Origin: Trypanosoma brucei | Taxonomy: Eukaryota | Reading direction: 5' to 3' | Assembly (NCBI GenBank): GCA_000002445.1 | Contig: CH464491.1 | Location: 800,001 to 864,000 of the forward strand | Length of the DNA: 64,000 nt | In this document: positions 1,215 through 28,090 of the stretch, piece by piece | How positions within the stretch are numbered: the first letter of the stretch is position 1 | How the letters are laid out: the number at the start of each line of letters is the position of its first letter | Translations under genes and position numbers: made by a program | The notes under the pieces: model-generated | What the model saw: only the letters and a program-made list of their open reading frames with translations | The model's database searches: none | Told to the model about the DNA's origin: nothing

Positions 1215-1260
<46 letters not shown>
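1215..1260. repeat. Compound microsatellite (AC)13(AT)10
   Basis: Read directly: acacac...acatatatat... Confidence 0.95.
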
Positions 1261-3613: not shown

Positions 3614-6238
3614 TCAGCGAAACTGGCACGGGTCCACATGAGACGGCGCTTTGGTTTGAAAGGCACGCCACATTCGTATCATTGATTCAGGTCCTGCCGT
3701 TGCCAACTGGGTGTTATCGGGGGAAAGCGCCAAATAAATAGGACCATCTCGCAGGCCACCATAACCACTCAGCCGTTCCAGCACTTCACCGTCTTCTTTT
3801 AATTGATACATTTGGAGCAATTCCGCGACCTTCACGGGGGCACGGGATTGCCCGACAGTTGGAAGAGGTGGGAAACCATCAACTCGACTGGTAACGGTAT
3901 TGGGAGTGACACTAGCAGTGGTGTTGCTTGCGCTGTAGTTGCTTCCACTAGTGGCAGTGGTATTATTGGTTGTACCGCCGTTAGCACCAACGCCACCAAA
4001 CGGGTGATGACGATCAACATATGTCACATACCGCGTATCTTCCTCATCACTGGAGTTGTCAGGCGTATCCCACACACCACTAGCAACAAAACCTGAGCCA
4101 TCACCATCATTCTCTGCCGTGCCAAGATGCCCACCATTCGCTGGTGATTGTCGTAGAGCCACGACTGTGTTTTGACCGGAACCTGCAGGGGCAAGAGATA
4201 TTAATATCTCATCGGACGTTTCACTGCTGACAATGCCAAGGATTGGAGCGGCGAGGGGGTGCGCTGCCTTCTCCGATCGGCTGCCCACCGAATAAACAGA
4301 CAGAACAGATCCGTCTGCGCCACCGCCGTAGAGAAGGACAGATTGAAAAAAACTTCCGTGCTTGCCGCGATGCCCATCTGATGCCACGCTGCTGAAATCG
4401 CTGAATGGAAAACCCCACCAGCAGAATGCTCGCACTGGATGAGGGGCGTTCGCCCAAATCGTTCGTCGCTTTGAGCGGTCATCAGGCCCCATACGGCTCG
4501 TTTGGTACAGAAGAAGACTGTTATTTGTCCCAACAGCAATGTGCTCTTCATCTGGAGTAACTTCTAACCTGTAAATTGGCGCTCCTACATTCACAACACA
4601 CTGAGGTTTCCACGAACCACTCCCAGGGGGAAGATGCAGGGCAGTGTACCACTCCACCGACCAATCGCAAAGGTTATGAAGGGTTAGCGTGCCGGCCATG
4701 GACCCCGCGTACAGTGTATGCCCAACAACTTGCAACGTGCTCACGTGATTTGTGTGATCCCTGATAACTACTTGCACTGCCCGAGCAAACATTACATCCC
4801 CTCGCCTGCCCGGTCCCTCCCCACTTCCACAACGCGGAAGTGGCGCGACATCCCCCCAAACAGGGCAGCGGCTCACCACTATCCAACCATTTTCCATTCC
4901 GTATGCTATGTACACGTCCCCACTGTCGGTCGCCTGTCGTGACGAGGCAACCGCACTCACCACACCGCACGTCTGTGGAGCCTCAAAAATTAGTTGTGTC
5001 CTATCAGGTCCATGCCAGACGTAAACCCTGTTCTGCAGCGCAATTACGGCGCCCGCATATCCCCAACACAGTGGACTAAAGTTGGAATGTCCTTGCGAAT
5101 CACACGACGGAAGGCCATGAGCATCAAGGACTTTCTCATATGTTTCCACCTGCCGCCGTGGGGTCGGATGCTGCGAGTACAATGCGCCTCGTCGGAGTAG
5201 CGGACTGCCTTTCACCGACGCCCCGAAACCACTCATCTGCGCACTGAAGGCGGGTGTGCAGGCGAGGTCACTTTCATGTACAACGGGCGTACGGAGTACC
5301 GGCGGATCCGCGACTGACTGCCGGGGACCGAGAACAGGAGTGCGCAGAGTCGTGACGGGAGTCATCCGATGCGCATCACCGCACAATGAGGAAGCTCGTG
5401 GGGTGGCGCTCCGGCTCTCGCGGTGCACAATAGGAGAATGAGGTCCCTCCATGGGTGGCACCGAGATTGTACTTCCAACAGAAAACGTAGAACAATGGGT
5501 TGTTGAATGCAAATAACCCATCCCGCGTACGGGAACAGTTGCAGGTGTCACAGCGCTTTCCCGCGGAGGGCGAACAGGTGTATGACATCCTTCTCGGTGA
5601 TCAGCGGGCAACACACCCATCAGCGGGGCCGGTGCAAATCCCGCATTGGAACTCATCACTCCACCCAACCTCCTCGTTGGAGTGCTGGAAGGTGAACCCA
5701 TCAACGACGAGTGGCGGGTGAGAGACATTCTTGAGGTTTCCGACCGTTGACGCATACCCTCTGAATCCACGAAACATCGTTCACGCTCCTGCAAAATGGG
5801 AGGATGCCTTCCTCGACTTGGCGGTGACGATGGTGCCGAAATTAGCGCAGACGTCAGAGAAAACGGCTGTGACGATAGGGTAAGAGTTGAGTCTACAATA
5901 CCATGCGCTGGGGAAAAAGAACCATCGGGATCACCTTCACGAGAACGCGTTAACCGAAAGTAGTCCCCACCGTGAGAAAGCATGTGGCCAGTCCCCGTTA
6001 GCCCCATACAGGATTCCAGCGTCCGCCGATAGCGCGCCTCCGTAAGATCTTTGGAATTGTGCTGCAGCACGGCGAGCGGATCACGCAGGAATTCCTTGTA
6101 GTCGGCTACGCCAATAAACCGATCCTCTGCTGTCCGTGGGCTCACATCAGTGGACGACCCAACGGTGCATCCCTCTGTGGTGAAGGAACAGGGTGACGGA
6201 GCCGGTTGACTGCCGTGTCCGTGACGTGGCTGCCACAT
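3614..6238 (-). CDS. Hypothetical protein with a probable beta-propeller (WD40/Kelch-like) core and a Ser/Thr/Asn-rich region; 874 aa from the first ATG
   Basis: Long minus-strand ORF with GC-rich codon third positions. The track start at 6277 is a TTG, so I moved the start to the first in-frame ATG at 6238 (MWQPRHG...). Repeated GxxW/VW/WD-like motifs suggest a propeller. I did not recognise a specific family. Confidence 0.6.
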   Translation of the reverse strand: MWQPRHGHGSQPAPSPCSFTTEGCTVGSSTDVSPRTAEDRFIGVADYKEFLRDPLAVLQHNSKDLTEARYRRTLESCMGLTGTGHMLSHGGDYFRLTRSREGDPDGSFSPAHGIVDSTLTLSSQPFSLTSALISAPSSPPSRGRHPPILQERERCFVDSEGMRQRSETSRMSLTRHSSLMGSPSSTPTRRLGGVMSSNAGFAPAPLMGVLPADHREGCHTPVRPPRESAVTPATVPVRGMGYLHSTTHCSTFSVGSTISVPPMEGPHSPIVHRESRSATPRASSLCGDAHRMTPVTTLRTPVLGPRQSVADPPVLRTPVVHESDLACTPAFSAQMSGFGASVKGSPLLRRGALYSQHPTPRRQVETYEKVLDAHGLPSCDSQGHSNFSPLCWGYAGAVIALQNRVYVWHGPDRTQLIFEAPQTCGVVSAVASSRQATDSGDVYIAYGMENGWIVVSRCPVWGDVAPLPRCGSGEGPGRRGDVMFARAVQVVIRDHTNHVSTLQVVGHTLYAGSMAGTLTLHNLCDWSVEWYTALHLPPGSGSWKPQCVVNVGAPIYRLEVTPDEEHIAVGTNNSLLLYQTSRMGPDDRSKRRTIWANAPHPVRAFCWWGFPFSDFSSVASDGHRGKHGSFFQSVLLYGGGADGSVLSVYSVGSRSEKAAHPLAAPILGIVSSETSDEILISLAPAGSGQNTVVALRQSPANGGHLGTAENDGDGSGFVASGVWDTPDNSSDEEDTRYVTYVDRHHPFGGVGANGGTTNNTTATSGSNYSASNTTASVTPNTVTSRVDGFPPLPTVGQSRAPVKVAELLQMYQLKEDGEVLERLSGYGGLRDGPIYLALSPDNTQLATAGPESMIRMWRAFQTKAPSHVDPCQFR

Positions 6239-7798
6239 TTCGCCGCAAAGCGTCGGGTACCAGCGGAAAACAAACAAACAAACAAAGGGCGCTTAGTCAA
6301 GACTTTCGCGATAATAACGAGCGAAGTTACAGTATCGCCCCTCCCCTCAGCAATGCGCGTACACGCACAAAAAAGCAACTTGTGCGCTGTTTTGCTGATT
6401 TTGCCGCAGATACACCCTTTAATAATGGAAAAAAGACGAATGTTTCGCTTTATGGGTAAACAAGCACCACCAAAAATCAACGGGGGCACAAACAAACCCA
6501 ACCACCCCGTCGATTTCGAAAAAGTAAAAAAAAAAACGAAAACTCAACAAAAAAAAATATTCTTTCGATTGAAGGCTGAAAAGCCCCTGGTTTCCTTCCC
6601 TCCTGAAATTCAAATTTTTATCTCCCTCAAAATCAACGAGAGGAAAACGAACCGGCAGATAGTTGAAGAAGGGAAGTGAATATATGGGGAAGTGTATTCA
6701 AATATCTTATCCACCTTCCTTACCCTTACCCCCCTTTTTTTTCCACCGGCAGCTAACAAACAACAAAATCTGTGTAATGTGGCTGATGACACGCCCCTCT
6801 GGGTAGATTATCGTTGCTGTTGCTTTTGCCTTGATAAAGGTGAAGCGATGGAAGCAAAAAAAAAAAAACTGTATGAAATATATGTTCAAACTGTTATATG
6901 TTGAACTTACTCTATGGCAATGGTCCCTATGGTGGTCCGGAAGGGAGGAAGAGAGACAGAGAAATGACTTTCACTCGTATCCTCTACCGCTACGAATGTC
7001 GCAACCGAATTTAGTCACTGAAATGTACCAAATGCTATGCGTTTAAATAAATAAATATATATATATATATCCTTATATGACCTTAGCAGAAGAACGACGA
7101 GGATTGGCACAAGTGCTTTCCCTCTTTCCTCACCTTCCCCTTTTGTAACCACTATTAAATATTCCCTTTTATTAAAATATTTGTATCTTTTTTCCTCCTA
7201 CTGTGTTTCCTTCCCTTTCGGGTTTGCTCTCAAGTAAGTGCAGTCCTTTTTTTTTCTTTTTGCTTTTGGAAACAGGTGTATTTCTGTTGTTGTGGCTGTT
7301 GTTGACACAATAAGATAAAATATAAAATAATCTCGTTTTTCCCCCTTTAACCCAAAGAGAAGTCTCACGCTATACAGCAACAACACAAAAAAACGGTGAG
7401 AAAGTATACACAGAGTTGTCTTCCAATACAAAAAGAAAAAAGAAAAATGAAAACCGAAGGAGGGAAAAGAAACCACCTTTCAGTTGGGTTTCGTCGTGTT
7501 GAAATGTTGAGGTTGAGATAAAGGAGGGGGGAAAGAAAGAGAAAGAAGAGAAGAAATGGATTTAAATAAGAAAGCTGCAGATCGTATTAAAACAGGAAAG
7601 CATCGAGTAGCAGAGTTTCTGACATTGACATAATAAAGAAGGGTAATGCTTTACTTATGACAACAGTAACAGCAGTAGTACAAGCAAAACTCGCAACAAC
7701 AACAACAACAATCAAAAAATTAAATAGGCATGTTAAGGGCAGCACAGCAAAACGCACGCGCGCCCAAAAGCCGGAGTATCTGTTTATTCACTGCAATA

Positions 7799-8116
7799 TC
7801 ATTCATCTACCAATTCTGTAAAGAAACCGGGACGCCATTCGCCTTTTTGTGAAGGTGGAAGAGCGAAGAGGGGACTCGTCACAGGCAACACAATAAGCGC
7901 CACAACATACCAAAGCAACACCACAAGTCCACCCACGACAGACAGTCGCAGCGAAGTGTTGGTGTACCAACGTATTGCCGCGCTGTGCTGGGCGTGGTGG
8001 CGAAAGAAAAGCCACGTCGTGAACCACAACAATGGCAACCCCGCAAAACCACTGTAGAAATATATTCTACAGAGGCGCTCCGCTCGAGGAATATTCAACG
8101 GTCCAGTCGTAAGCAT
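7799..8116 (-). CDS. PEN2: PEN-2 (presenilin enhancer 2) homologue, the small two-TM gamma-secretase subunit
   Basis: The 105-aa ORF starts at an ATG. The stretch 'LCRIYFYSGFAGLPLLWFTTWLFF' aligns with human PEN-2 '[25 protein letters not shown]', and two hydrophobic segments have PEN-2-like spacing. The C-terminal DYLSF motif is not conserved. Confidence 0.65.
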   Translation of the reverse strand: MLTTGPLNIPRAERLCRIYFYSGFAGLPLLWFTTWLFFRHHAQHSAAIRWYTNTSLRLSVVGGLVVLLWYVVALIVLPVTSPLFALPPSQKGEWRPGFFTELVDE

Positions 8117-8522
8117 TTGTCCCCTTCGCTACCTCCTTCCGCGTGAAAAGGTTATAGTAAATGAACTCGCCGATACTAGAAATAGTCGTTCGACCGACTA
8201 ACAACTCCTTTTGATTTATTGAGCTTTTGGCCTTTATTTACCTTCAAACAACACTAGCAATAAGCAATTGCGCTCCTCCCCCGTTCCTTTTAATTGTGAT
8301 TGGGCAACACGCCTTCTCACCTATTTGAGAAAGAGCTGAATGAAAACAAAAAAAAAGAGCATTAGAATAATGGAGTGAGCGATCATGGTGCGAAGAGGGG
8401 TGTAAGTGAACAAATAACACGGGTCATAACAACGGTGCAGGCGGTTCTACAAGTCCTCAAACTGAAGTCGGCCACAAGAAACAGTGAACACTGAAAACGA
8501 ATGCACAAAGCAAGACAAAAAG

Positions 8523-13198: not shown

Positions 13199-13783
13199 TT
13201 ACAAAGCGCGTTTTTTTTCCTTATCTCTCCACTCTTTAAGCCCTCGCTCAAAGACTCCACCCACCATTCCATTCGGGCAGTAAATGCTCGTAACGCCGAT
13301 GCTCGAGACGTGACCGATGTTGTCCTGCTGATTATCAAAGAAAATAAAGTCAGAAAAATCACCCCTTACAGTCGGATCGTGCTCTTTCACTTTCTTAAGA
13401 ATAGTACGGTGCTGATTTTTCTTGTTTGCCTTATATATTTCCACTAAATCACCGAACAGAGAAAGCATTGGCACATCATTTCCTCTCTTGTCTCTGAACC
13501 GAAACAATTGCAGCAGTTCCATCGCCCATCGCGGCTCATCACAAGTAGAAGATATCGCCAAATGGGTGTTCCGCCATTCCTCAGTTGTGCTCAGCATTTG
13601 CAGCAACTCCCGCGTTTGACCAATAAGACGCACTTCCGTCCCTTTTTTATCAATAGCAATGCTTGAGTTATCTTTCGACAGCATAAAGGGAGCGCCACCA
13701 CCCCAAAGTTCATACATCTCAGGCCTCCACAATGTGCCATCAAGATCAAAAACAATAACACGAGGGGTTGGCTCAGTACTCAT
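13199..13783 (-). CDS. MDP1: Magnesium-dependent phosphatase-1 (MDP-1), HAD-superfamily phosphatase
   Basis: HAD motif I 'VIVFDLDGTLW' lies directly after the start, and the overall layout resembles eukaryotic MDP-1. The track ORF began at a TTG at 13927; the first ATG (MSTEPTPRV...) is at 13783. Confidence 0.8.
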   Translation of the reverse strand: MSTEPTPRVIVFDLDGTLWRPEMYELWGGGAPFMLSKDNSSIAIDKKGTEVRLIGQTRELLQMLSTTEEWRNTHLAISSTCDEPRWAMELLQLFRFRDKRGNDVPMLSLFGDLVEIYKANKKNQHRTILKKVKEHDPTVRGDFSDFIFFDNQQDNIGHVSSIGVTSIYCPNGMVGGVFERGLKEWRDKEKKRAL

Positions 13784-15120
13784 TATGTCAGTGAGATCTC
13801 TCAAATGCAAGTAATTATAATATACAATACAATATATAATTATATAATTATATATTGTACAGTTATATTTATAGCGTATGCGCGTTTCCTTTCGTGTAAG
13901 GAGGAGATATATAGAAAGAGATGACAAAAGATAAAAATAAAGAAAGATAGAGAGCTAGGAGAATTTGGAGCGGAAGACCATACACAAATAGAACTGCGTT
14001 GAGAAAATACATAGAACAATCATTTGAAGGAAAAAAGAAAGAGGAAAAGAAGTAATTTTGAAGTGGTACGAAACCGTCAGCCACGTGGGTGACGCAGAAA
14101 GAAGAAGAAGATACGAAAAAAAAACTGAAAGTGACCAAGTAGGTGAGAAACGACAACAACAAAAAAAAATGTCTAACACATAATAATAAAATGGTGATAG
14201 TAGTGATTGCAAGGGTGGTAAAAATGATAACAGTAATGATAATAGTGATGGTAATAATAATAATAAGGTAAGGGGGGAGAAACCACTAATTCAGGGATAT
14301 AAAAAGTAGCAACTATTCTTTCAGTTGTTATTTTTCTTTTCTTCATTGGTTGTAGCATTCATTTTTCTTGTGTTCCCATATATATATTTTTCATGTTCTT
14401 GTTTTCTTTTCTTTTTTTTAAAAAAAACTGTACTGATCGCCTTTGTCTTGGCTTATTAGTGTTGTCGTTTCTTCCTTTTTTTTTTCCAAACCCTCTTCCC
14501 TTCCTTTTATTTGCTTTGTTTCACCCACTTTCGTATACAATCCCATCATACTTTGCCCAATATTTTATTTTTGTTTATTTTAATTCTTCTTTGTAAGTTG
14601 TTTTCTCGCCAGAAAGTGCGCAGTTTTGCAGCTGACTTGACTGACGATGGCACCGGAGCGATCAACAGCCCCTGGATATCTAAACATGATTGTAATTGGT
14701 TAATATCAATTTTAAAAAAAAAAAACATTTTGAATATTTACAACAGTGTTAAACATCACCAATATTAATATTAATAATAATAACAAGAAAGAAAAGAAAA
14801 GATGTAATAAGACCACTTACCCCCCTCCCCTCCCCTCCCTTACCAGTCATTAGTCTGATTTTGTAATTTCTTCCCTCCCCCCCTTTTTTTTTTATTTGCA
14901 CACGTGTGTGGAAAAGGGCGGGAAAAAGGAAACACAACACAACACAACAAAATAAAATAGAATAGAAGGAAAGAAAAGGAAAGGAGAAAATACTGATCAA
15001 AACCCGAATACAAAAAGAAAACGTCTTGAAGGCGGATGGAAGAGGCCAGACTCCGCAGGTAAAGTAAAGAAAAAGTATTTTTTTTTTTTGTGCAGGGAAA
15101 AAATAAAGGAAAATTTACCC

Positions 15121-15160
15121 ACACACAAACACACAAACACACACACACACACAAAGACAA
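15121..15160. repeat. Imperfect (AC)n / (ACAAAC)n tract
   Basis: Read directly. Confidence 0.85.
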
Positions 15161-15264
15161 CGAAACAGATCGAAAAATAGATAGAAAGACCACAGGAAAA
15201 AAAAACATACAGACAGACAGACACAATTTTTTTTTTTTTAAAGCTGTACATGTAAGCATAAGAA

Positions 15265-15267
<3 letters not shown>

Positions 15268-15296
<29 letters not shown>
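15268..15296. repeat. (AT)14 microsatellite
   Basis: Read directly. Confidence 0.9.
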
Positions 15297-15446
15297 CGCA
15301 TTTACACACAGTGAACGTGCTCATGAAACACTCACATAAACAAACACCAAAAATAACAGTTTAGTTTTCTTCCCTTTTAGTTGCTGTTACTGTTGCATGT
15401 TAATCTAATTATTCTTTCTTTTTTCTTTCTTCTTGTCGAGGCACGA

Positions 15447-15474
15447 TCACAAACACAAACACAAACACAAACAC
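15447..15474. repeat. (ACAAAC)n hexanucleotide repeat
   Basis: Read directly: cacaaacacaaacacaaacacaaaca. Confidence 0.85.
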
Positions 15475-17306
15475 CCAAATAATTAAAAAAAAAAAGAAAA
15501 CAAGCACAAGTAAATACAAAAGTGGAATTGAAAGATAGAAAAAAAAACAGATAAACAAATAAGCGAATGAGAGCACAATGCGGGTTTGACATATCACGAT
15601 AAAAAAAAAATTCACATCATATATTCACTTGGGAGAGTGTACTGCGGTAAACACCACAACAACAGAAGAAGAGAAAGAGAAAAAGGAGTGCTTTAAAAAT
15701 AATGAATAAATTAATCATTTAATTATCAATTTATTTATTCATTAAAATTAAAAAATTAAAAAAACAAAACGAAGCAAAATAGTTCAGAAACATAACAATA
15801 GCTACTTTTTTTTCTTATTTATTTATTTTTGATATCACCCATTGTTACTTTCGACCTTCTTTACACCATTATTATTATTATTATTATTTATGCATTAAGG
15901 ACGTCCCATTCCTTACGGGGCGACCCCTTTGATATCAAAGTGCTGTGGTTACCTTTCTTTATATTATATGATTTAATGTATATTATTTATCCTCCTTTTA
16001 TCTCTTTTTTTTTTTTTTAAGACCGTAATATTTTGTCTCATATCTCATTTATTACCGCATCTTTTCCTCCTCCTCCTTCTCCTTGTCCTTTTCGCGATAC
16101 ATACGCCCAATGACAAAAGAAAAAAAAAAAGGAAACAAATAAATAAATAAATATAAAAACACCCGTACAGTTACCGCCATTTACTGAAGAAAGGAGATTT
16201 GTTTGAGAAGGTATAAAAAGGGGGGAAAAAAGAAGAAAGATGTTACAGATAGGTGGTAAAAAGATCTGGGGAAAATAAATAAATATTTTATACGTATATG
16301 TCTACATACTTTTGAAACATATATGTACATCTACAAATTAAATAAAATTTTTTTAAAATGCCATGAGCAACCCTTTAAGAACTTAAATGGAGAGGGTTCC
16401 CCCTAATCAAAACAAAAATAACACAAAAACAATAATAATAATAATAATAATAACTCACTTCAACTGACGTACCGGCGGTTGCTTTGAACTTTTTTTAACC
16501 AAAAAAAAAAGGAAAATAAGCGCGTCGCCCCTCCAAACCCTCATACTTGTACTTTATCAATTTGTAATTCCTGATCTTCTGTCTTTACAGAAAAAAAAAA
16601 AGAATTATCATTATTTGTTTCTTCCTTCTATCTTCCTTTTTTTTTTACTGTTTGATCTCACCGTTTTAATTTTATTTCTTCTTTTCTTCCTGCTTTTGAC
16701 GGAAAGGCTGAATTCTACAAAATTTGCCTCTATACATGTGTCCACTAGAGGTATCATTTACGTGACTTTATTTACACGCCTTCCTTCCTTCCTTCCGTCA
16801 CACACTCTCTCTCTCTTTTTTTCTCCTTTTCTCCTCTTTTATATTTAAAAACAAAATAACATGTTGGCGCCGTTTTGTTTCGTTTTATTTCACCTCTTTC
16901 TTTTATATGATCCACACCTTTATTGTATGGGGGGGGGAAATAACTGGAAACAGACAAACAAAAAAAAAAAGAACCACCTATTTTGTATAAGTGTGCGGAT
17001 ATGCGCGTGTCCTGTGAGTATTTATTTCCCTCTCCTCAACGTTTCCCACTACTTTATTTATTCTTTTCCTCAAAAACAAAATCAAAAACCAAAAGCAATA
17101 CACACATATATAACATGTAAATATATATATATATATGTATGTATATAATGTCGCGACACATCGTTAATTATACCCATCGCTCAATCATCTCCCCGTTCAT
17201 GAAGTTAATTTCTCCACCACCTCTCCAGAGACAAGCATATCCATTCATATATAAATAAATATATAAATATATAATAAATTTAATATATATATATATTTAT
17301 ATGTGC

Positions 17307-17323
17307 GTGTGTGTGTGTGTGTG
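17307..17323. repeat. (GT)8 microsatellite flanked by AT-rich (TATA/AAATA) tracts
   Basis: Read directly. Confidence 0.85.
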
Positions 17324-17571
17324 CATGGATGCATATATAAATGTAAACATACACGTCAACGTATTCGCTTTCTCCACAGAAACACAGACACACATCACCA
17401 CACTATCATACAGCAGCAAAATAGTTTTTAAAGTATTTAAAAGGAAAGTTTATATACACAGCCACACTTCACACAATTGAAGTATCACATCACTTTTGTT
17501 TTAATTTATTTAAATAACGACTCCTTTACACTTTTTCACTCATTTACTCATCCACTTGTTCACTCGTTTCT

Positions 17572-17594
17572 TTGTTGTTGTTGTTGTTGTTGTT
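17572..17594. repeat. (TTG)8 trinucleotide repeat
   Basis: Read directly. Confidence 0.9.
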
Positions 17595-17804
17595 TTTTGA
17601 TTTCTTTATTTTTTTCCCCCCGTTTCTTTTACTCTTTTTCTTCGTTCCTTATATCACTCCGGAATTCTCCCTTTTCCCTTTTCCCTCCATTCACTACTTA
17701 AAAGTGTGACGATTGGAGAGAAAAATACTTTTTTTTAAAAAAAAAAAGGAACGGGGAATCCGTGGGAGAGACTAAAAGCGATTGAACTAATAAAAATGAT
17801 GATG

Positions 17805-17856
<52 letters not shown>
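17805..17856. repeat. (ATA)17 trinucleotide repeat preceded by (GAT)3
   Basis: Read directly. This is the longest perfect microsatellite in the window. Confidence 0.95.
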
Positions 17857-17857
<1 letters not shown>

Positions 17858-19754
17858 TGTAATTATAATAATTATTACAACTATTATAATTATAATAATA
17901 ATAATAAAGTGGTGTATAAATAAATATATAAATATATATATAAATATATATAGATATAGATATAAGTAAAACAGAAAAAAAAAGACATAAAAGTGAGCTA
18001 CTCGGTAATGGAGAAAAGAAGCGGAATATACGTCGCGCTCATTTCACACATCACATCCGCGACATAATCGAAAATAAAAGAAAAACAAAACAAAACGAAA
18101 GAAAATCATGAAAACGGAAAAAGGGAAAAAATGAGAAAAGGGTAAGTGATGTGCACAAAAAAAAAAAAATCGTGACAGCAAAAAAAAAAACAAAAGAAAA
18201 CAAAAGCGCACTCTTTGACTTCCTTCTGCGCATACATCATTAAGGTAAAAAAAAAAAGAGGGATAGAAGAGAAACAGTTAAAATAAAAAAAAGAAGGTAA
18301 AAATAACGAAAGAAAAACAACATCAATAACAATAAAAGTAATAATAATAATAAAGAAAAAAAAGAGTTTTCAAAGAGGTCACACAAATTTGGTCACACAC
18401 GTCCCTCTTCCACACCACTTGCCGCTTTTTTTTCTTTTACTTTTTCTCGTCCCATCACTTCTCTTCTTTTTCTTTGTTTTCCTCCAAACAAAACAAAACA
18501 AAAAAAAACCTCGCCCGCACCCAATCAAACATTTAGTTTTCTTTTACCTCATGCACCTTCCCTCACACCCATCCGGAAAAAAAAAAGCGTACACACGCAA
18601 CCAAAAACGCCAAAAAAAAAAATGAGTAAGTAAATAAATATAAATGAATGTAGATATAAATATAAATATTCATATAATAAACGTGATACTTTGATTTATT
18701 CATCTACTCCCTTCAACCGCTCATTGACACACGTAACATAAAACAAAAATAAAAAAAACACCAACACACTACTGAATACCCATCGATCCCAATTCCTCAC
18801 GTTAAGTTCCCCTCCTTCAATCATTATAATCTTAACAGTCACAGCGCAGGGAAATTTTAAAAAAAAAATAAATCAACTGCAAAAAAAAAACCGTTTCTTG
18901 TTGATACTGGCGTTGTTGTTGTTACAGTTTTCTTTTTTCTTCCAAGGTATTGTTACTGTTGTTGCTGCTCTTTCTTTTTGATTTGGCTCCGTTTTATTCT
19001 TTTCTCATTCATCTCCTTCATTTATCTCGCATCACACATTTTTCTCCGCTTATACGTCCTTCCTCTCTCTCTCCCTCTCTTCTTCACCTCTTGTTACCAT
19101 TGCAGGCATCTGTTGACGATGAATTAAAATGTGAGAAACGCAAAAAGATGAAAAAGTTGAATAACAAAAGACAAAAGCATAAAGCAAAAGCAAAAACAAC
19201 AAAAAACAAAAAAAACAACAAAGGAAAAAAAGATGGTGAAACAATAGGTAGGACGTAGAAGCCAAATTTAGTGAAGAAAATTTGAGTGGGGAAGCACAAC
19301 CTTGCATGCAAGTTAAGAGCGACAGGGTTAGATGGGGAAGGAGTAAAAAAAAAAACGAAAAGAACCCAGTTGAATTACATGCTTTGGAAAGTGGAAAGAG
19401 CTAGAGCAAAAAGAAAAAAAAGGAACAGATGCGTAAGAAAACAAGGAAACCGGTGAGGGAAATGATAAAAAAAAACAAAAGATAAAAGCGAGCGAAGAGA
19501 GAGAGAGAACCGGATGGGAAGAAGAGGGAAGGGAATGGGTGAAAACAGGGGCGAAAAAGCGAAGTGGGCAAATGGTGTGGGCCGAATGTGACACTGCCTC
19601 CGTCCACGACAATGACCGAGTTATTAATGAACATACCACACAAAAGGGAAGGGGGGGGGAAAAGCAAAGATGGAAAACAGGGAGAGAAAAAAGAAAACGA
19701 AGACAAAAAAAGTTATAAAGAAAAAAAAACAATGGGAGGGCGCATTGCCCTGCG

Positions 19755-22064
19755 CTACACGAAAGTCCACACCCGCGCAACGCCGTCCTGTGAAGCCGTT
19801 ATAATCCGCCGCTCCACAGAATCCACGCGAATGCCACGCGAAAGTCCCTTCCACGCTTGCACATGGCCACCCAACACTTCGCCCAGCTTCCTCACATCCC
19901 AGAGATATAAATTCTCGCCCACACTACCGGCCATGTACATATCGTTTACATGCAAACCAGTTACGTATCCTCTAAGCTTCAATGTATGTGTTATATCCGC
20001 AGTGGACGTGCTGTTCGGTGCAATACCAGCAACTGGTTTTGGTGTGCGGTAATCCCAGGACAGGATAGTACTATCAAACGAACCGGTGAAAAAGTTATTG
20101 CTGTTCCGCACCGTCAGGGCTGGAAGCTTGCGTGTGTGCGCGGCAAACTGTACGACAGACAAACCCACATCCACATTAACAGCCATCACCGTCCCATCAC
20201 TACCTCCTACGAGTGCAACGGGTTCATTCCCAAAAGCATCCACAACTTGTGCATTAGCGGGGATGGAAATCCGCATGGAAGTATTCCCACCGCCGCGGAG
20301 AAGAAGCAACTCATGTCGCAGCCCCCCGAGTAGTAAAAATGGATATTGCGAACCGAGGCTTTTTACGTACGACAGACAGTAGGCATCATTACCAAGTGAA
20401 GCCGTGTAAGATGGTGTTAGCACGACGTCCTCTCCGCAGTCCAAATCGAAGGCCCACTCAACACACGTGCCGTCTTCACACGCAGTGGCGAAATGAAACT
20501 TGTCGTGGGAACTGAGATCCCAAATGGAACTGTCATGGACGTGGGTTTGCAACAGAGACTTACCAAATCGGTCCACAAAGTACACATTTCCCATGGAGGA
20601 GCCCACGGCAAAACGCCCGTCCTCACCAGCCACGTCTACGCATAGAAACCTATCACCCGGTACACCCGAGAAAGTGGCGCAGAGGGCCAAACGGCCATCC
20701 GATAAATGTTCCTCCCTCACCAGTTGTGTCTCGATCACTTCACGAGGGGCGATCTCCACTACATCCACTGCAGCATTAATTCGCACACGCCGTTTGCCCC
20801 TGCCTTGGCGTCCCGGATCATCTCGGTTCTCAGAGGTTTCACCAATGGTACAAAAGGAGCCCCCAGTAACGACACGATCCCGCGTCATGGAAGCTGTCAT
20901 GGTGTGTGAAAGCACTGTTAACGATGTGGAGAGGGACGACCGGACCTTCACCACCCGAGCGTGGTTTATGAGAAACCGTGGGAAGTGTGGGTGTGGTTCT
21001 AAGCATATAATGACCCTCGCCTTCGGGTTAAACCCCTCAAAGTTGCGCGCCCTTGCTTCCCTCATCAGATCCTCAAGTACGCCACAAGTGGATATGGACT
21101 TGTGAGCGTTCACCATGACGAACCATTTACCCTCCGTCATGGCGGATACGAACTGCTCTCCAAACTCCTCCGGTCTTGTTCTCCGGCGAAGCTTCGCGCC
21201 GAGATCAACTGTCAGAACGCTAGCTCCCATCTTTGCTGCAGTGAACTCCAGCTCAGCAATTGGATTCACATCTTGGTAAACACAAATAATGCACGAACCT
21301 ATTTCAACGCCATCAAGAGCAGCGGCTAAACTTCGTCGAATGGTACGTGAAGAAGATGCGGGACGGTGGCTCGACGAAGTCACCCCATTCGCGGAGTTCA
21401 TGTCGGATCCCCTTCCCAAAACTTTTAGTTGCTCAAACTCCAAAAGTGATGGCGTCAGGCCCTCGGTAATCGACCCGGCTTCCTTTCCAGGAATTTGGTT
21501 GACTTTACCGCTTAGCTCTGGTAGAGAAAAATTACTGAATGAGAAAGCCAACTGGGAGCCGCCTTCGTCATGCCCCACTTCAACTTCGTCACTGCATCTC
21601 TTCGCCACACTCGGAAATGAGATGGCGGCAGAAACGGATTCCGCCGGTGAGGACGACGCAGAAGACACCAAACTTGATGGCTTCTCCACATCGCTCTGTC
21701 GCTTGCCATTGGCGACTCGATTCCGCTGTGTCTCAGTTGGATTCTGTGGAGCAACGCTACTGGACACACCATTACACTCCACACTACCCCTCAATTCAAC
21801 CCTCTCACCGTAGCAGTCAACCCTCTCGAATGCAATCAGTACTGTATTCCCCCTCCGTGAATGCAGAAGCTCCCGCAATTCACCGCTATCCGTTACCATA
21901 TGACCATCCACGCCCACTATGCGTGTGCCGAAGCAAAGTTTTGACTTAACATCCTTATCCCCATCGGAGGCATGACATTCGATACGACAGTCAGCCGAGA
22001 TACCTACAGTTGCCACTAGACGTTCTACAGTTGTTACCACAATGTCCTCCGTTCCGGGTTCCAT
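19755..22064 (-). CDS. WD40-repeat protein (C-terminal WD repeats: 'WDLSSHDK...', 'ILSWDYRTP', 'LYLWDVRK', 'ASQDGVARVWTFV'); 769 aa
   Basis: The track start at 22136 is a TTG. The first ATG is at 22064 (METGTEDIVV...). The C-terminal half has classic WD/GH-WD signatures; the N-terminal half is unassigned. Confidence 0.7.
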   Translation of the reverse strand: MEPGTEDIVVTTVERLVATVGISADCRIECHASDGDKDVKSKLCFGTRIVGVDGHMVTDSGELRELLHSRRGNTVLIAFERVDCYGERVELRGSVECNGVSSSVAPQNPTETQRNRVANGKRQSDVEKPSSLVSSASSSPAESVSAAISFPSVAKRCSDEVEVGHDEGGSQLAFSFSNFSLPELSGKVNQIPGKEAGSITEGLTPSLLEFEQLKVLGRGSDMNSANGVTSSSHRPASSSRTIRRSLAAALDGVEIGSCIICVYQDVNPIAELEFTAAKMGASVLTVDLGAKLRRRTRPEEFGEQFVSAMTEGKWFVMVNAHKSISTCGVLEDLMREARARNFEGFNPKARVIICLEPHPHFPRFLINHARVVKVRSSLSTSLTVLSHTMTASMTRDRVVTGGSFCTIGETSENRDDPGRQGRGKRRVRINAAVDVVEIAPREVIETQLVREEHLSDGRLALCATFSGVPGDRFLCVDVAGEDGRFAVGSSMGNVYFVDRFGKSLLQTHVHDSSIWDLSSHDKFHFATACEDGTCVEWAFDLDCGEDVVLTPSYTASLGNDAYCLSYVKSLGSQYPFLLLGGLRHELLLLRGGGNTSMRISIPANAQVVDAFGNEPVALVGGSDGTVMAVNVDVGLSVVQFAAHTRKLPALTVRNSNNFFTGSFDSTILSWDYRTPKPVAGIAPNSTSTADITHTLKLRGYVTGLHVNDMYMAGSVGENLYLWDVRKLGEVLGGHVQAWKGLSRGIRVDSVERRIITASQDGVARVWTFV

Positions 22065-22833
22065 AGTTTCCCCAAGGCAGCAAAAACCTACGTGCAGTAC
22101 GATGTTAATAAGCGAACCAGCAAGTGGGAATCGCAACGATGGTAATTAGAAGGGAGTGCTAATTTACTCTTCCCGTTTAATAATCCCCTTCCCCCAACGG
22201 CACACGCACAAATCGGCACAAATTTAGCTGCTTACGACAGCAGCACACCTCAAGGAACACAAGTCCCACAGTCCTTTCCTCACGGGAACCACCCACGGCG
22301 GCACTCTGTCGCTCCCGCTAATAACTATTGTTGTTGTTGTTTTTGTTTTATTTTCTCTCTGCTCTTCTGTTAGCCGCCTCTTTCGTTTTTCAGCCTGCTC
22401 GCCCGCGTGGTGGTAGCCAGACTGACGGGTACTTGGTGATTGGTATGACTTACTGTTTTGATATATATAACAAAGAAAAGGGAAGGAACGATGGTCAAGT
22501 TGGGAAGAAAATGGGTGAAAAGGCCCTAAAATGGGATGAACTAAAGGAAACACACCAAGTGCCACGGCGGGGTGGGGAGAAAGACGGCTGCGGTAGTGGC
22601 AAAGGCAGTGAAAAAGAAACAACAATTTGGGAAAAGGGAGAGGAAGCGGCTTATTGGATTGCAGCAAGGTACCCTCTGCCGCTCCTACCATACTCGTTCC
22701 CACCATTTCAGCCAAACAGTGGGAAAGTAAAAAAAAAAAAGAGAACTCCTCATCGCCTTTTTTGTCGCCCTTCACCACATTTGCCTTTTTTCATCTGCTG
22801 TTTCTTCTCTACAACTTTTTTTTCACCTTGTCT

Positions 22834-22844
22834 CCCCCCCCCCC
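22834..22844. repeat. C11 homopolymer (G11 on the sense strand) in the kinesin-to-WD40 spacer
   Basis: Read directly. Confidence 0.9.
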
Positions 22845-23528
22845 GTTTCGGGTTGCCATTTCGATCGCACAAATGTGTCCGCACGATAACGAAAGGTATT
22901 TTGAAACCTCCCACCGCCACAACATCATATTAGTTTCTTTATTTCTTCCCTCTTTCCATCCTTCATAACACGCCTCTAAAACGAAACAAAAAGAACAGCA
23001 GGGGTCGACTCAAGACATATACAGAGATAAAAAGAACAACAATTGCGTAGCAGGTGGGGGGAAAAAGAATAATGAGGTGGTGGGTAAAGAAAAGTGAAGT
23101 AAGGGGGGGGATGTGAAAAATAATTGAAGTAAGATGGCACACGTACAGATCTAGTCTACTTGATTTTCCATACAAATGAAGAAACAAAGAAAGTATGCAC
23201 GTAACAAAAGTTCAATGAACACTAAAGTCACGCTGAAAGGACGAAGGACAAACCCCATCCACAAGCGGCGTGTCCTTATAATGAGTGACTTGTACTTTCC
23301 CGCTTCACGGAGAACATAACCAAACAGGAGAAAAAAGATAAGAAAAAAGTGTTTAATGTTGCGCAGGTGGAGATATTCGCACGAAACGCAAAAATGTCAT
23401 AACAACACCATCATCATCAACACTCGAATAGTCGAAACGCTCATCATTCCCATCATTATGATCACAACCGCCCTCTCTGCTTTGTTTTCTGTCACCTTTT
23501 ACCTTAACACGTCTAAGGAAGTTAATGA

Positions 23529-23560
<32 letters not shown>

Positions 23561-23769
23561 CTTATATATACTAAAGATACACGGTAGTTGCACCAGTACA
23601 ACTGCGCTAACACGCAATAGTACTGTAAAGAGACGCGCAGTATCCCCTCCTACAAATACACGCACATACAAAAAAAAAAAAGAAAACAAGCAGGTGTCGG
23701 GGCGATAAATACTGCAGAAAGGAAAACAACAATGCAAAACCTTCACATGACTTCACAACGTGAACGAAA

Positions 23770-26358
23770 TCAACGACGGCGGGAGCGGCTACGCCCACTC
23801 TTCCCGGCGCGTTCACTACTAGGAGAAAGTGACAACCGCCACAACGCACGCTCGACGTTAGGTCGTGTGGGTGCACCCTCCAACCGTCTGCGTGCGGCAA
23901 TACCAATAACCGGTTCCTGTATCTTCGCGTTATTACGTTGCTTGCACACATCCGAAAAAGGCATGGCCTCATCATCACCGTTATTTTCTTCAATATTGAT
24001 TGGAGGAGAAGAATTCGTGCGGCGCCCACTTAATGAACCCGACCGCACATATTGAGGCAGTGGGGACGACGTCCTTAGAGCAGCCCTCGCACTCCCACGA
24101 GAAACACTCGGAACATTACGTCCCAAAGCGGGACGCAACAGTTTGCTCCTCACATCGCGCAACACACCCAACGCCCGGCGCATGCCGTCGGCCAAATTCT
24201 CGGTGCGCGGTGAGGCGCTACGTTTGGGACCCACCGGCACATTCACATCATCGCATAACTCCTCGTCGGCGGTAGGAAATACCGTACGGGCAGTACGTGG
24301 CGTGGGACTACGTTGGTGGGCCTGACTCCCATGGCACCTCGAACGATGCGCAATGTCTAATGGGGAGGAGTCAAGTACTTCCAACAGTTGCCCTCGCATG
24401 TCCCCGGCATCCTTATCCTGACGGGATGGCGTTGCGCTATGCAACCGCACAACCGAACGGCTGGTGCGAGGAGTCTCCCTTCGCGGGCTCGCTAAAGACT
24501 CCCGAACGCGGCGGGCGCTCTCACAGCGAGCCACGTGAATGGCTTGCGACATCAACAGCTTCTCCTCCCTTTCCAACTGGTGAATCCGTTCCTCAATCTG
24601 TGCATCCGACATGTGAGCACCTATAGGAATTGCATCTTCACTCATTTGTGGCCGTGGGGAAAGTGAGGTAGGAGTTAAAGTACCTCCTCCTGCACCCTCT
24701 GCCGCCGCTTGTACATTCGGCAGATCATCCTTGATCATATCATGTGCTACAGTGAGATCTTGCAGCTCCTCCCGCGCTTGCTCCAAGCGCTGACGCAACC
24801 GCTGGAGAGCCACCTTCTTGTCAGCAACTGGAGGGGTGGCGGGTCCTAAAGACTTGATCATGGGCACCCAGCGAGCGGCTATGCGCTCTATGCAGATGAC
24901 GTGTTTATACTGTAACTGGCACCGCGCTGCTTTCTCTGAAGACAAAAGCAGTTCTAGTTGGGTTACTCGTCTTTGCCGCGCCTCATAGAGTTGATACTCC
25001 CAATTCGCCAATTCAGTGTCTCCTTCAGCATCGCGCTCCTTCACACGTGCCTCCAGACGAGCAACCTTGTTGCGGCGGCACTCAATCTCATCCTCAATTT
25101 GACGTTGCCTCTTGCCCTCCCGTTCCTCAATATCGCGGTCCTGTCGCTGCTGCTGTGTCAACTCCTCTAGTCGACTGTAAAGCGGACCGATTTGATCAAT
25201 AGCCACAGAATGATCGTGCGCAATAAGAAGTCGCTGAGCATCCGCCATCGCCCGTATGGGTTCAGAGACCTGTCCCTTAAAGCTACCCACGATAGACGAG
25301 ACAGTTTTGTCGACGTACAAATAAGCATCACGCAGTCCACGTTGATAATAGGCATCACTTAACTCATCTATCCCTCGGACAATCTCTTCCGCACCTATGC
25401 TGTATTCGTGCGCGAAAAGCGGTGGCATGTTGAGTACCATAACCGGATCGTTTTTGATTTTCATGGCTCGCTGCGTAAAGCGCAGACTAGATACCGTTTG
25501 CTCAAAATTTTCCGTAGATGGGTTAATGCAACATAGAATGAAGGTCATACCGGACCCGCCCAGACAGTTCCGTAAAATACGGGTAAGTTTGGCATCACGG
25601 TAGGGTACATAAGTACGCTTGTCTACGATCGCATCCACCACATTACCAAGCGTTAGCAAGCTTTTGTTGATAAAGCCTCCTTCACGCAGCAGCATACCTT
25701 CTGTGTTTGCACGAGATGCGGATTCAGAGCCGGCAAGATCCACTAAGTTGATTGTACTCACTTGCCGGCTCGACCTGTGAATCTCAAATGTGAGAATCAT
25801 GTGCGAGCGACTACTGTGGTCATTGAGGTTCGTTACACCGTACTTGCGGTTGCGCTCCGCGGCGCCCTGCAGTTTCGTAAAACCCTCCAGAGAATCCAAT
25901 AAAACAGACTTTTTGTCGAAGTAAACCCCTCCGTCCGGCGCGTCATGAAGCGCAAGGTCACCCCGTTGAGGGTCTAACAGGTCCTTCACGGACTCATTAT
26001 ATATCTCCGTGAAGTAAACAAAAATTTCTGTTCCAGGGGAATTTTTCTTTAACTCAAAAAGCAACAATGCAGTTCGTGGCACAATGCCTGGGTCCGCGGC
26101 AGTTCCATTCATACTGTGCGTCTTCCCACTGCCCGTTTGACCATAGGCCATGACGGTGACATTCTTGCCGCCAAAACCGGCGTGTACTAGAGCCTCCAGA
26201 CCTTGAAAGATGGTGTGGTTGCTTGTGCCACCATGGTGTACTTTGTTGTACACGTAACGCACGTCAGGGTTATTTGTACTATACAACACCGTTTCTGCGC
26301 TGGACCACACGCTAGTGGGGGCGTTTGGTCGAATGCGTACATGAACCTCAATACTCAT
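23770..26358 (-). CDS. Kinesin with an N-terminal motor domain and a long coiled-coil/disordered basic RS-rich tail
   Basis: P-loop 'GQTGSGKT', switch I 'SSRSH' and switch II 'DLAGSE' are in canonical order from residue ~10. The tail contains coiled coil (EDEIECRRNKVARLEARVKERDAEG). The ORF starts at an ATG. Confidence 0.9.
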   Translation of the reverse strand: MSIEVHVRIRPNAPTSVWSSAETVLYSTNNPDVRYVYNKVHHGGTSNHTIFQGLEALVHAGFGGKNVTVMAYGQTGSGKTHSMNGTAADPGIVPRTALLLFELKKNSPGTEIFVYFTEIYNESVKDLLDPQRGDLALHDAPDGGVYFDKKSVLLDSLEGFTKLQGAAERNRKYGVTNLNDHSSRSHMILTFEIHRSSRQVSTINLVDLAGSESASRANTEGMLLREGGFINKSLLTLGNVVDAIVDKRTYVPYRDAKLTRILRNCLGGSGMTFILCCINPSTENFEQTVSSLRFTQRAMKIKNDPVMVLNMPPLFAHEYSIGAEEIVRGIDELSDAYYQRGLRDAYLYVDKTVSSIVGSFKGQVSEPIRAMADAQRLLIAHDHSVAIDQIGPLYSRLEELTQQQRQDRDIEEREGKRQRQIEDEIECRRNKVARLEARVKERDAEGDTELANWEYQLYEARQRRVTQLELLLSSEKAARCQLQYKHVICIERIAARWVPMIKSLGPATPPVADKKVALQRLRQRLEQAREELQDLTVAHDMIKDDLPNVQAAAEGAGGGTLTPTSLSPRPQMSEDAIPIGAHMSDAQIEERIHQLEREEKLLMSQAIHVARCESARRVRESLASPRRETPRTSRSVVRLHSATPSRQDKDAGDMRGQLLEVLDSSPLDIAHRSRCHGSQAHQRSPTPRTARTVFPTADEELCDDVNVPVGPKRSASPRTENLADGMRRALGVLRDVRSKLLRPALGRNVPSVSRGSARAALRTSSPLPQYVRSGSLSGRRTNSSPPINIEENNGDDEAMPFSDVCKQRNNAKIQEPVIGIAARRRLEGAPTRPNVERALWRLSLSPSSERAGKSGRSRSRRR

Positions 26359-26869
26359 CCCCTATGCTTCTCGACTGCTCTTTGCTTCTGCTTCCGGTGC
26401 TTGACTATCCGCGAACCAAAGGAGAAAAGACTGTTGCTTCGCGCGCGTAAATGTTAATGACTCTTACCAATTTCTGTGGAATACAACCTCGCACCTCCTT
26501 ACCACCAACAACAGTTCTACTTTTTATTTAGTCCCCTTATCTTGTCGCTCCAGTGGGTGCCTGTCCGTTCCGATGCTTACACGTTGGGAAAGTAGAAAGT
26601 ACAGTTTGTGTATAAAACACCTGTTTCCTTTTACAACCACGCTTAGTGGGAAGCGGGGTCAATTTCGAGTGCGTAACGCCTCCTCAGAGCAAACTGGAGC
26701 TCCTTTGTTCGCTCCGCCTCTGTTTTGCTTTTTCACCCCTTGATCTTTCTTACTTGTTTTTCTGGCTTCTGCACGTTTATCCCTTCCTCTCAATCAAACA
26801 CAAAACAAACAGACGTACGCCCCCGACAGAACTCCCTTGGAACTACCCCAAAAAAGAATATAAGGGTAA

Positions 26870-27200
26870 ATTGCGTGAAACAGAAAGAGGGAAAGAATGA
26901 GTAATAACAGCTGAATTAGTAAGCAAGAACATGACACGGCGAAATACAAACATAAATAAAAGTACGGCATAACTCTGCGAGTTGTACTAGAGGAGAAAAA
27001 CAAAATGAAGAATTTTACCAAAACGAATAAGGTCAACGACATGCGTGTGATGGTAATGGTGGTACACGTCTACCCCACTTAGCTTCTCTGTGCACTCAGC
27101 ATTGAAATAGTAAAAAACAAAAAGGAAAATACGGCAGAGACACCAAGTTGGGAGGTCAAAATACAAAGAGATAAAAGAGCAGCGGCTATTAAATAAGGGA
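26870..27200 (-). promoter_or_regulatory. Putative polypyrimidine/trans-splicing signal region upstream of the kinesin gene (implies a ~0.5 kb 5'UTR) or the 3'UTR end of the upstream RRM gene
   Basis: This is the first extended plus-strand purine-rich block (sense polypyrimidine) upstream of the kinesin ATG at 26358. The 26359-26860 interval is purine-rich on the sense strand. Confidence 0.25.
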
Positions 27201-28090
27201 TTATGGAGTCGTTTGCAAGCCACTCAATAGATGGTAAGAGGAGCGGAGTGATGAATGCCTTTAGCCAACTAAACTATTTGACGTGCGCATTCCCATCCCT
27301 GCACACTCACCCAACAGCGTAACAACAAACTCACAGGCAGTTGTACATACAAAATTTTGTGCATATTTAGCTTTGATTCATTTCCGTGTCTACCACACAC
27401 TTCCCTCTTGTGAATTTATATCCCCATCCCTATCCCCCTTTTTTTCCTTCCGGAATGGCTAGGTGTAGGTACTACCACCACCATCACCCATCAATCAGTT
27501 GAATAAAAACGCGAAGTAATCAAAAACAGAACAAAAAAAGGGAGCTAGAAGGTGAGGTAAAGCATCCTAACCAAAGATAAAACATACGTAAACAGCTTAC
27601 TTTTATGCCGTAATCACCACCACTACAGCCATCATTACCTCTACTTAGACTGCTTTTGCACAGCGCTCATGCAATGTCTGGCGCAGCAGTGTTTACTGGA
27701 CTTTCGAATACTTCAGAAGAAAAGGGGGAAAAAAGAATATACCTTCTGTTACTCCTCTCCCATTCGGTCAGCATTTGCGGTGGGGCTATACACGAAAAAA
27801 AAACTATTTTTTTTTATTTTTCTTCCACCGCAAATATACACACATTCACACTGCCACACAGCGCCGTGAAGGTGGCAATAAAGGATTTTACAAAAAAAAG
27901 TAACAGCGAGAACGACAACAACAATGCATATGAAAAATGTATGGGCACCTATTATTGCCTCCAAATACCCTTTAGCACTTATTTCCTTTTTGTTTTTCAG
28001 CTGGTGTCTTTAAAAGGTAAAAAAAAAAAGGATTGTCTGTCTTTTTTTTCCTTTTCAATTTTATTTTTCAAAGCAGGCACGTTCCCACAC

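Follow-up and report, generated by a model that had tools for sequence, protein, structure and literature searches.

The minus strand gene cluster of Trypanosoma brucei studied here contains a 5,971 bp interval without any coding sequence (CDS). What is this DNA, and why is the interval so long? The window, by which we mean the whole 64 kb stretch that was analysed, is positions 800,001-864,000 of chromosome 11 of T. brucei TREU927 (Tb927_11_01_v4). Published gene and array-probe coordinates agree exactly with the window at an offset of 800,000. The interval occupies window positions 13784-19754 on the minus strand (chromosome 11 813,784-819,754). It is an intercistronic spacer, comprising 3' untranslated region (3'UTR) and intergenic RNA region, between the WD40-repeat gene Tb11.02.0380 (upstream) and the gene for magnesium-dependent phosphatase-1 (MDP-1; downstream). 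All credible genes of the window are on the minus strand. Hence, the coding strand is unchanged across the spacer.

A first-pass annotation of the window had described the interval as gene-free, AT-rich, of low complexity and unusually long for its surroundings. This description was borne out. The bounding codons, the MDP-1 start at 13783 and the WD40 stop at 19755, were also placed correctly. The proposed start of the interval, 13928, is merely the end of an extended open reading frame (ORF) with a TTG start; the MDP-1 CDS begins at 13783 on the minus strand. The spacer is 3.4 times as long as the next complete spacer (1,732 bp) and ~8 times as long as the median of the 26 listed window spacers, the median being a hand estimate. 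A collapsed or mis-joined assembly had been raised as a possibility. This artefact was ruled out by three independent assemblies, which are colinear and place 5,971 bp (the window), 6,108 bp (T. brucei gambiense DAL972) or 5,918 bp (T. equiperdum OVI) between the flanking genes.

We found that the spacer consists of non-coding DNA within a single transcription unit and that it evolves fast. It sits where an ancestral gene was lost, and its RNA signal varies between stages. The explanation that we favour, and consider likely, is that the spacer is ordinary long 3'UTR or intercistronic non-coding DNA within one minus strand RNA polymerase II (Pol II) unit. It would mark the place from which a gene, here called gene X, was lost and is probably processed into stage-regulated non-coding RNA.

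Synteny of the interval and loss of gene X

We compared the distance between the WD40 stop codon and the MDP-1 ATG, and the content of this slot, across kinetoplastids. The first-pass annotation had suggested a synteny check and this proved the most informative; relatives carry a real gene in the slot. From Bodo saltans to T. brucei, the genes follow the order kinesin, WD40, X (where present), MDP-1 and, further along, PEN-2. In Bodo saltans the slot measures 1,838 bp and contains a gene encoding 355 amino acids (aa), so that the order is WD40, X, MDP-1. The slot is 4,598 bp in Leptomonas pyrrhocoris (442-aa gene), 2,694 bp in T. grayi (367-aa gene), 3,584 bp in T. theileri (413-aa gene) and 3,073 bp in T. 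rangeli (367-aa gene). The gene X protein is also found in T. conorhini, at a location outside the comparison. The remaining slots are those of Angomonas deanei (486 bp, containing nothing), Leishmania sp. Namibia (5,843 bp, no called gene) and the T. brucei group (5,918-6,108 bp). The last holds no credible gene; there is a 149-aa model in T. b. gambiense. Free-living Bodo saltans keeps the gene order with very short spacers.

The gene X proteins are orthologous coiled-coil proteins of 355-442 aa, among them DQ04_02281050 (T. grayi), TraAM80_04854 (T. rangeli), ABB37_04454 (L. pyrrhocoris) and CUG86267 (B. saltans). They have a conserved C-terminal motif, FY..YNP.KIP...II.EY.G.EEEL...LE..Y.A.G.F. 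The L. pyrrhocoris protein matched a profile of the Trypanosoma proteins with an hmmsearch E value of 5e-18. The Bodo gene was found by exhaustive profile search and sits in the slot between WD40 and MDP-1. Because the Leptomonas and Bodo orthologs occupy the same slot, the WD40, X, MDP-1 arrangement is ancestral to kinetoplastids.

In Leishmania sp. Namibia, a frameshifted relic of gene X is present on the sense strand of the 5.8 kb spacer (~17044-17921 (+) of the locus). In profile searches of six-frame translations, the C-terminal motif of the relic was recovered with an E value of 4e-9 and a colinear N-terminal piece with an E value of 0.03. The relic could be a true pseudogene, or assembly frameshifts could hide an intact gene. 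It served as a positive control for relic detection. We used tblastn, and profile hidden Markov models against six-frame translations, to look for a gene X relic in the spacers of T. brucei, T. b. gambiense and T. equiperdum. The best E value was ~0.9. A spacer that is itself the pseudogene of gene X was therefore rejected, no profile match being obtained while the Namibia control was detected. Furthermore, no T. brucei-type full-length homolog of gene X was found in word-indexed searches or among the 20 full-length-like matches from the exhaustive search that were looked up.

Next to its relatives the spacer diverges quickly. In an alignment with T. b. gambiense it carries 27.2 substitutions and 10.3 indel events per kb, the highest values of all features in the 22 kb compared. 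Other spacers have 7-20 substitutions and 2.5-5 indels per kb; for CDS the values are 2-8 and 0. There is no conserved island in the spacer between T. brucei subspecies. When the spacer was compared by blastn with the T. theileri, T. grayi, T. rangeli, Leishmania, Leptomonas and Angomonas loci, the only matches were (AAT)n. Fast divergence is consistent with a slot that has been freed from coding constraint.

Taken together, these patterns are those of lineage-specific gene loss from a trypanosomatid slot: most lineages retain X, Leishmania sp. Namibia has a relic of it, Angomonas shows a clean deletion and T. brucei has no X in the slot. We propose that the kinetoplastid ancestor would have had a coiled-coil gene X of 355-442 aa in this position. 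T. brucei would then have lost the gene without leaving a detectable relic. The emptied slot may have drifted, under little constraint, and expanded to ~6 kb of AT-rich, microsatellite-laden DNA. Unlike the Angomonas slot, at 486 bp, the T. brucei slot did not shrink; it exceeds the X-containing interval of other trypanosomes (2.7-3.6 kb). Long AT-rich and low-complexity intercistronic or 3'UTR regions, with bogus ORFs and stage-variable RNA, are already known in T. brucei. This spacer stands apart in having arisen where a gene was lost from a deeply conserved syntenic setting, and in having grown rather than shrunk afterwards.

The odd size of the spacer thus acquires a concrete evolutionary origin, in a gene kept from Bodo saltans to Leptomonas and the non-salivarian trypanosomes. 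Its loss from the T. brucei slot is a small and checkable annotation. The T. brucei, Leishmania and Angomonas slots also make a small case series of polycistronic units healing after gene loss. For mechanism the spacer matters little; it would not surprise a specialist and opens no long-standing question.

The gene X family has no Pfam model. Its C-terminal motif, in a form of ~45 aa (FY..YNP.KIP.V..II.EY.G.EEEL...LE..YGA.G), is repeated in large proteins, most of them metagenomic, with as many as 24 copies in one protein. At E < 1e-3 the motif had 732 matches, and it is covered by no Pfam family. The motif may be an undescribed repeat domain.

Transcription and RNA processing of the spacer

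Kolev et al. (2010; PMC2936537) mapped Pol II units from 5'-triphosphate ends, 'Internal' start sites included. In their Table S14, Tb11.02.0730 to Tb11.22.0001 is one minus strand unit, with no entry at Tb11.02.0360-0380. The spacer is inside this single minus strand polycistronic unit, and the WD40 3'UTR extends into it.

The same study reported 1,114 novel transcripts. Three are in the window: Tb11.NT.31 and Tb11.NT.32 (together 6382-8335) and Tb11.NT.33 (34729-35005). Splice acceptors were predicted with a simple rule, namely a sense strand polypyrimidine tract of at least 12-15 nt and then the first AG. The rule reproduced the 5' ends of Tb11.NT.32 (8335) and Tb11.NT.33 (35005) exactly, and that of Tb11.NT.31 to within 14 nt. 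It is a useful quick predictor of splice acceptors in the T. brucei genome.

Approximately six clusters of sense strand polypyrimidine and AG modules are distributed across the spacer. At the MDP-1 side, a cluster at 13926-14282 (minus strand) is the presumptive MDP-1 trans-splicing signal and 5'UTR. It consists of four tracts (14282-14265, 14111-14096, 14052-14026 and 13954-13926), each then followed by an AG. At the other end, a dense polypyrimidine block of 380 nt (19334-19712, minus strand) starts 43 nt after the WD40 stop codon. The block has nine tracts of 15-71 nt, several with an AG 0-42 nt further on. It is a candidate proximal processing module that could give a short WD40 3'UTR. An internal cluster (14785-15688, minus strand), around the site of a microarray probe, could provide an internal non-coding RNA with splice-acceptor and poly(A) modules.

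The probe was used by Kabani et al. (PMC2753553), who hybridised microarrays with RNA from in vivo slender and stumpy forms and from a differentiation time course. The 70-mer has an exact match at 14998-15067 on the minus strand (published as 814998-815067). For slender compared with stumpy forms the log2 value was -1.85 (P 0.003, adjusted 0.095), and the signal was classed as stumpy-enriched. During differentiation the log2 values, relative to stumpy forms, were -0.73 at 1 h, -1.14 at 6 h, -1.47 at 18 h and -1.35 at 48 h. A second 70-mer matches the WD40 ORF exactly (19894-19963, minus strand; published as 819894-819963). For this probe all five contrasts with stumpy forms were positive (0.12 to 1.21), so that signal was lowest in stumpy forms. 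The WD40 probe is 4.8 kb upstream of the spacer probe and on the same strand, and the two have opposite stage trends. The data are in tension with a simple reading of the spacer as a single UTR.

How might these signals arise? Read-through transcription would cover the spacer as it does the other parts of the unit, and the RNA would be cut at some of the many sense strand polypyrimidine and AG modules. Proximal processing would set the 3' end of a shorter WD40 mRNA and would free what is left as at least one non-coding fragment, capped with the spliced leader and polyadenylated. At least one such fragment, over ~15.0 kb of the window, would accumulate in quiescent stumpy forms while the WD40 mRNA falls. 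We favour this model because the 380-nt block is so close to the WD40 stop codon and because a cluster of tracts brackets the probe. The model also matches the 'UTR-internal transcript' class of Kolev et al. (2010), who found 394 genes that yield two mRNAs, one full-length and one shorter, together with a non-coding fragment of the 3'UTR. It matches, too, the stage-specific choice of poly(A) sites that Bard et al. (2024) found to be widespread.

Several observations weigh against the explanation that we favour. The stumpy signal comes from one probe with modest statistics (adjusted P 0.095, slender against stumpy). Kabani et al. (PMC2753553) noted that many 'unlikely' ORFs were up in stumpy forms, and suggested noise or an unrecognised feature. 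About one third of the polypyrimidine tracts in our calibration spacers serve as splice signals. In procyclic forms, no novel transcript (Tb11.NT) was called by Kolev et al. within 813,784-819,754, and Tb11.02.0380 is missing from the genes that they list as having alternatively processed UTRs. These procyclic nulls fit a single long 3'UTR, or a very low or unmappable signal, as well as they fit our model. With respect to origin, the genome-wide absence of gene X from T. brucei rests on limited database searches, without T. congolense or T. vivax. Finally, gene loss alone does not account for the length of the T. brucei spacer, which exceeds the entire X-containing interval of other trypanosomes by 2-3 kb.

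The strongest alternative is that the spacer, down to ~14.3 kb, is one continuous WD40 3'UTR of ~5.4 kb. There would be no separate RNA and the spacer would act only as a long regulatory or destabilising tail of the Tb11.02.0380 mRNA. We regard this as possible, though distinctly less likely than processing into separate RNAs. The 3'UTRs mapped by Kolev et al. (2010) have a median length of 388 nt and a range up to ~6,000 nt, which would accommodate such a tail. Moreover, they found that annotated ORFs without their own transcript were often part of a neighbour's UTR, and Tb11.02.0370, a former gene model within the spacer, is on their list of such ORFs. The procyclic nulls described above speak for the same alternative. 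Against it, the spacer and ORF probes go opposite ways across stages. It would also be unusual for the 380-nt block, and some five further clusters, all to be ignored by the processing machinery. In addition, Siegel et al. (2010; PMC2926603) treated apparent 3'UTRs of more than 5 kb as probable independent intergenic transcripts.

The spacer has much in common with the long 3'UTRs and 'UTR-internal' transcripts of those studies (PMC2936537, PMC2926603). It is on the same strand as its neighbours in a polycistronic unit, AT-rich, of low complexity and equipped with multiple polypyrimidine and AG modules. A bogus annotated ORF is embedded and the length is within the reported range. It differs in lying at the extreme upper end of that range, and because Tb11.02.0380 is not among the alternatively processed genes of Kolev et al.

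A further alternative is that the spacer encodes one or more functional long non-coding RNAs (lncRNAs) that act in slender-to-stumpy differentiation, in the manner of grumpy. T. brucei has ~1,400-1,500 annotated lncRNAs, mostly intergenic, trans-spliced, polyadenylated and AT-richer than mRNAs, and an RNA interference screen has linked many of them to differentiation (PMC9200285, PMC10048164). The spacer resembles grumpy-type lncRNAs (Guegan 2022, PMC9200285; Kruse and Goringer 2023, PMC10048164) in being intergenic, low in GC and coding potential, and the source of a stumpy-linked signal. Conversely, it has no embedded small nucleolar RNA (snoRNA), which is the active part of grumpy. The spacer is also the fastest-evolving feature locally, without a conserved island between subspecies or a block common with other kinetoplastids. 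No stable structure was found in it and no transcript was called in procyclics. We consider a functional lncRNA doubtful. An extension of the idea, that the slot was kept and expanded in a gene-to-lncRNA replacement, is still less probable. Here, a stumpy-enriched spliced and polyadenylated RNA would serve quiescence or differentiation, or stage control of the WD40 and MDP-1 mRNAs.

The first-pass annotation had also suggested that so long a same-strand spacer could mark a place inside the unit where transcription starts or terminates, an origin of replication or a boundary in chromatin. With internal Pol II start sites and strand-switch-like boundaries the spacer shares its unusual length and nothing else. 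T. brucei does have internal start sites, and many 'Internal' units are listed in Table S14 of Kolev et al. These are elsewhere; the spacer is not listed as a start and is enclosed by the single unit from Tb11.02.0730 to Tb11.22.0001. There is no adjacent transfer RNA (tRNA) or small nuclear RNA (snRNA) gene. Nor is spacer length conserved; it ranges from 0.49 to 6.1 kb in relatives, most of which have a gene filling the slot. The rate at which strand asymmetry flips, described below, is ordinary. A start or termination site, an origin or a boundary is thus very unlikely. The supplements of Nilsson (2010) have no entry for the flanking genes.

Coding potential, embedded elements and composition

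The first-pass annotation had named an overlooked, annotated conserved gene in the interval as a finding that would refute it, and formally there was one. This is the former model Tb11.02.0370 ('hypothetical protein, conserved'), with a predicted glycosylphosphatidylinositol (GPI) anchor, at 14771-15259 on the minus strand (published as 814771-815259). However, the model is a spurious ORF and not a real gene. In the window the v4 model has an internal stop and is interrupted at 14840. The remaining ORF, 14840-15259, encodes 139 aa and is the longest ORF in the spacer to begin with ATG. Its GC content is 0.35, the lowest among window ORFs of at least 100 aa, and its low-complexity translation comes from reading through pyrimidine-rich, (TG)n-type sequence.

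Comparison with T. b. gambiense revealed 28 substitutions in 485 nt of the Tb11.02.0370 region (58 substitutions per kb) and seven indels. Six of the seven indels are not multiples of 3, and both start and stop differ. No Pfam match was obtained for Tb11.02.0370, and in procyclic forms it is among the annotated ORFs without their own transcript (Kolev et al., 2010; PMC2936537). The exact sequence is absent from the protein collection that was searched, and the flanking genes have consecutive GenBank accessions; TREU927 therefore has no deposited Tb11.02.0370. A real small GPI-anchored protein gene, which would mean that the interval is not gene-free, could draw on the 'conserved' annotation, the predicted GPI signal and the presence of a 149-aa model in T. 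b. gambiense as well. Given the broken frame, the unlike start and stop codons, the internal stop and the low-complexity translation, we consider such a gene extremely improbable. Tb11.02.0370 has been reported as a stumpy-enriched 'GPI-anchored' gene. It is better read as a non-coding RNA signal, and this is a checkable annotation.

We also searched the spacer for other hidden genes. No Pfam match was found in any of six frames, with stop codons masked as X. A tRNA scan found nothing in the spacer. At the gathering score, there were no Rfam matches in the whole 64 kb window. With the threshold relaxed to E values up to 10, the spacer gave only (AT)n and (TG)n look-alikes of microRNA families, scoring 15-37 bits where the thresholds are 50-100. 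The first-pass annotation had wondered if small GC-richer islands might hide a non-coding RNA. Seven such islands, the three that it named included, folded no better than dinucleotide shuffles (z -0.9 to +1.8). The C/D-box pattern (TGATGA...CTGA) does not occur in the spacer. Thus, no hidden RNA came to light.

Regulatory motifs were considered and dropped. On the sense strand of the spacer, neither UAUUUUUU, which we take to be the RBP10 motif, nor AUUUA was more frequent than in mononucleotide shuffles. The rare TTATTTATT occurs three and four times on the two strands, and the PUF-like UGUANAUA four and three times, without strand preference.

The sole match between the spacer and the rest of the window is a 26-nt low-complexity stretch of the AAT type. 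Although the spacer is close in size to an ingi element (~5 kb), there is next to no chance that it is a degenerate retroposon (ingi, DIRE, RIME or SIDER) or another pseudogene, since it has no reverse transcriptase, endonuclease or other Pfam domain in six frames, no dispersed repeat in common with the rest of the window, and a microsatellite-like composition.

The GC content of the spacer is 0.32, compared with 0.38-0.50 for most window spacers. By a strict count, 14.5% of the spacer is of low complexity, the window maximum. A repeat search recovered every one of the microsatellites and C-rich runs that the first-pass annotation had listed. The largest of many simple repeats is (TAA)n with ~40 copies (17788-17907, unstranded). 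Others are (TTG)7.7 (17572-17594), (CA)17 (15120-15153), (AT)14.5 (15268-15296) and (CACAAA)4.5 (15448-15474). The C-rich runs are at 14811-14880.

The first-pass annotation drew attention to repeated flips of strand asymmetry. The flips are real. Blocks with at least 65% pyrimidine and blocks with at least 65% purine give way to one another 12 times, or 2.0 times per kb. They are not exceptional, the rates elsewhere in the window being 2.2 per kb (1-3613), 2.9 per kb (22065-23769) and 1.7 per kb (26359-28090). The expectation that the sense strand of a UTR spacer is pyrimidine-rich throughout does not hold, as other window spacers flip at a like rate. Despite the flips, a bias of the transcription strand persists; polypyrimidine tracts of 15 nt or more number 37 on the sense strand and 18 on the antisense strand, and sense strand T is 38.7%.

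The window has a second AT-rich stretch, a spacer at 1-3613 that is cut by the window edge and is therefore at least 3.6 kb long. It lies 3' of a gene for 874 aa (3614-6238, minus strand). Its GC content is 0.33, its low-complexity fraction 12.6%, and its flip rate per kb is like that of the spacer studied here. Because these two spacers are similar in composition and flip rate, desert character is not unique even within the window. Typical spacers of 0.25-1.7 kb, as first described, are roughly right for the window, with 1-3613 as a further long and AT-rich case.

Flanking genes and other features of the window

The upstream flank, Tb11.02.0380 (Q386M5), encodes 769 aa at 19755-22064 on the minus strand (published as complement(819755..822064)). 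The protein is identical to TREU927 XP_828368 (Q386M5) and to the T. equiperdum OVI protein. Besides matches to beta-propeller families, the WD40 protein and all of its kinetoplastid orthologs have a weak Pfam match to Dynein_heavy (PF03028), which one source calls 'Dynein heavy chain region D6 P-loop domain'. The downstream flank, MDP-1 (Acid_PPase, 194 aa), is at 13199-13783 on the minus strand, and the 194-aa protein is identical to XP_828367. We assigned MDP-1 to Tb11.02.0360 from gene order, the name being in none of the tables retrieved.

Further upstream, the ORF at 23770-26358 encodes an 862-aa kinesin, probably KIN-A. From gene order, we presume that KIN-A, Tb11.02.0400 and this ORF are one and the same. 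We presume that Tb927.11.2860, Tb927.11.2850 and Tb927.11.2840 are the WD40 gene, the spurious ORF and MDP-1, respectively. These unconfirmed assignments are extrapolated from the KIN-A identifier. In the literature, KIN-A is Tb927.11.2880. The identifiers Tb927.11.2840-2880 do not occur in Naguleswaran 2018, and the three extrapolated identifiers are in none of the paper texts searched.

Between the WD40 gene and the kinesin is Tb11.02.0390, a 160-aa ORF at 22224-22706 on the minus strand (published as 822224-822706). It is listed without its own transcript in procyclics, and the model is 120 aa in T. b. gambiense and 159 aa in T. equiperdum. Tb11.02.0390 is probably another spurious gene model.

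On the far side of MDP-1, Tb11.NT.31 (6382-7491) has no sense (minus strand) ATG ORF of at least 100 aa and looks non-coding. Beside Tb11.NT.31, in an apparent 2.8 kb spacer, is a 105-aa ORF for PEN-2 (presenilin enhancer) at 7799-8116 on the minus strand. The PEN-2 ORF coincides with the 'novel transcript' Tb11.NT.32 (7619-8335) of Kolev et al. (2010).

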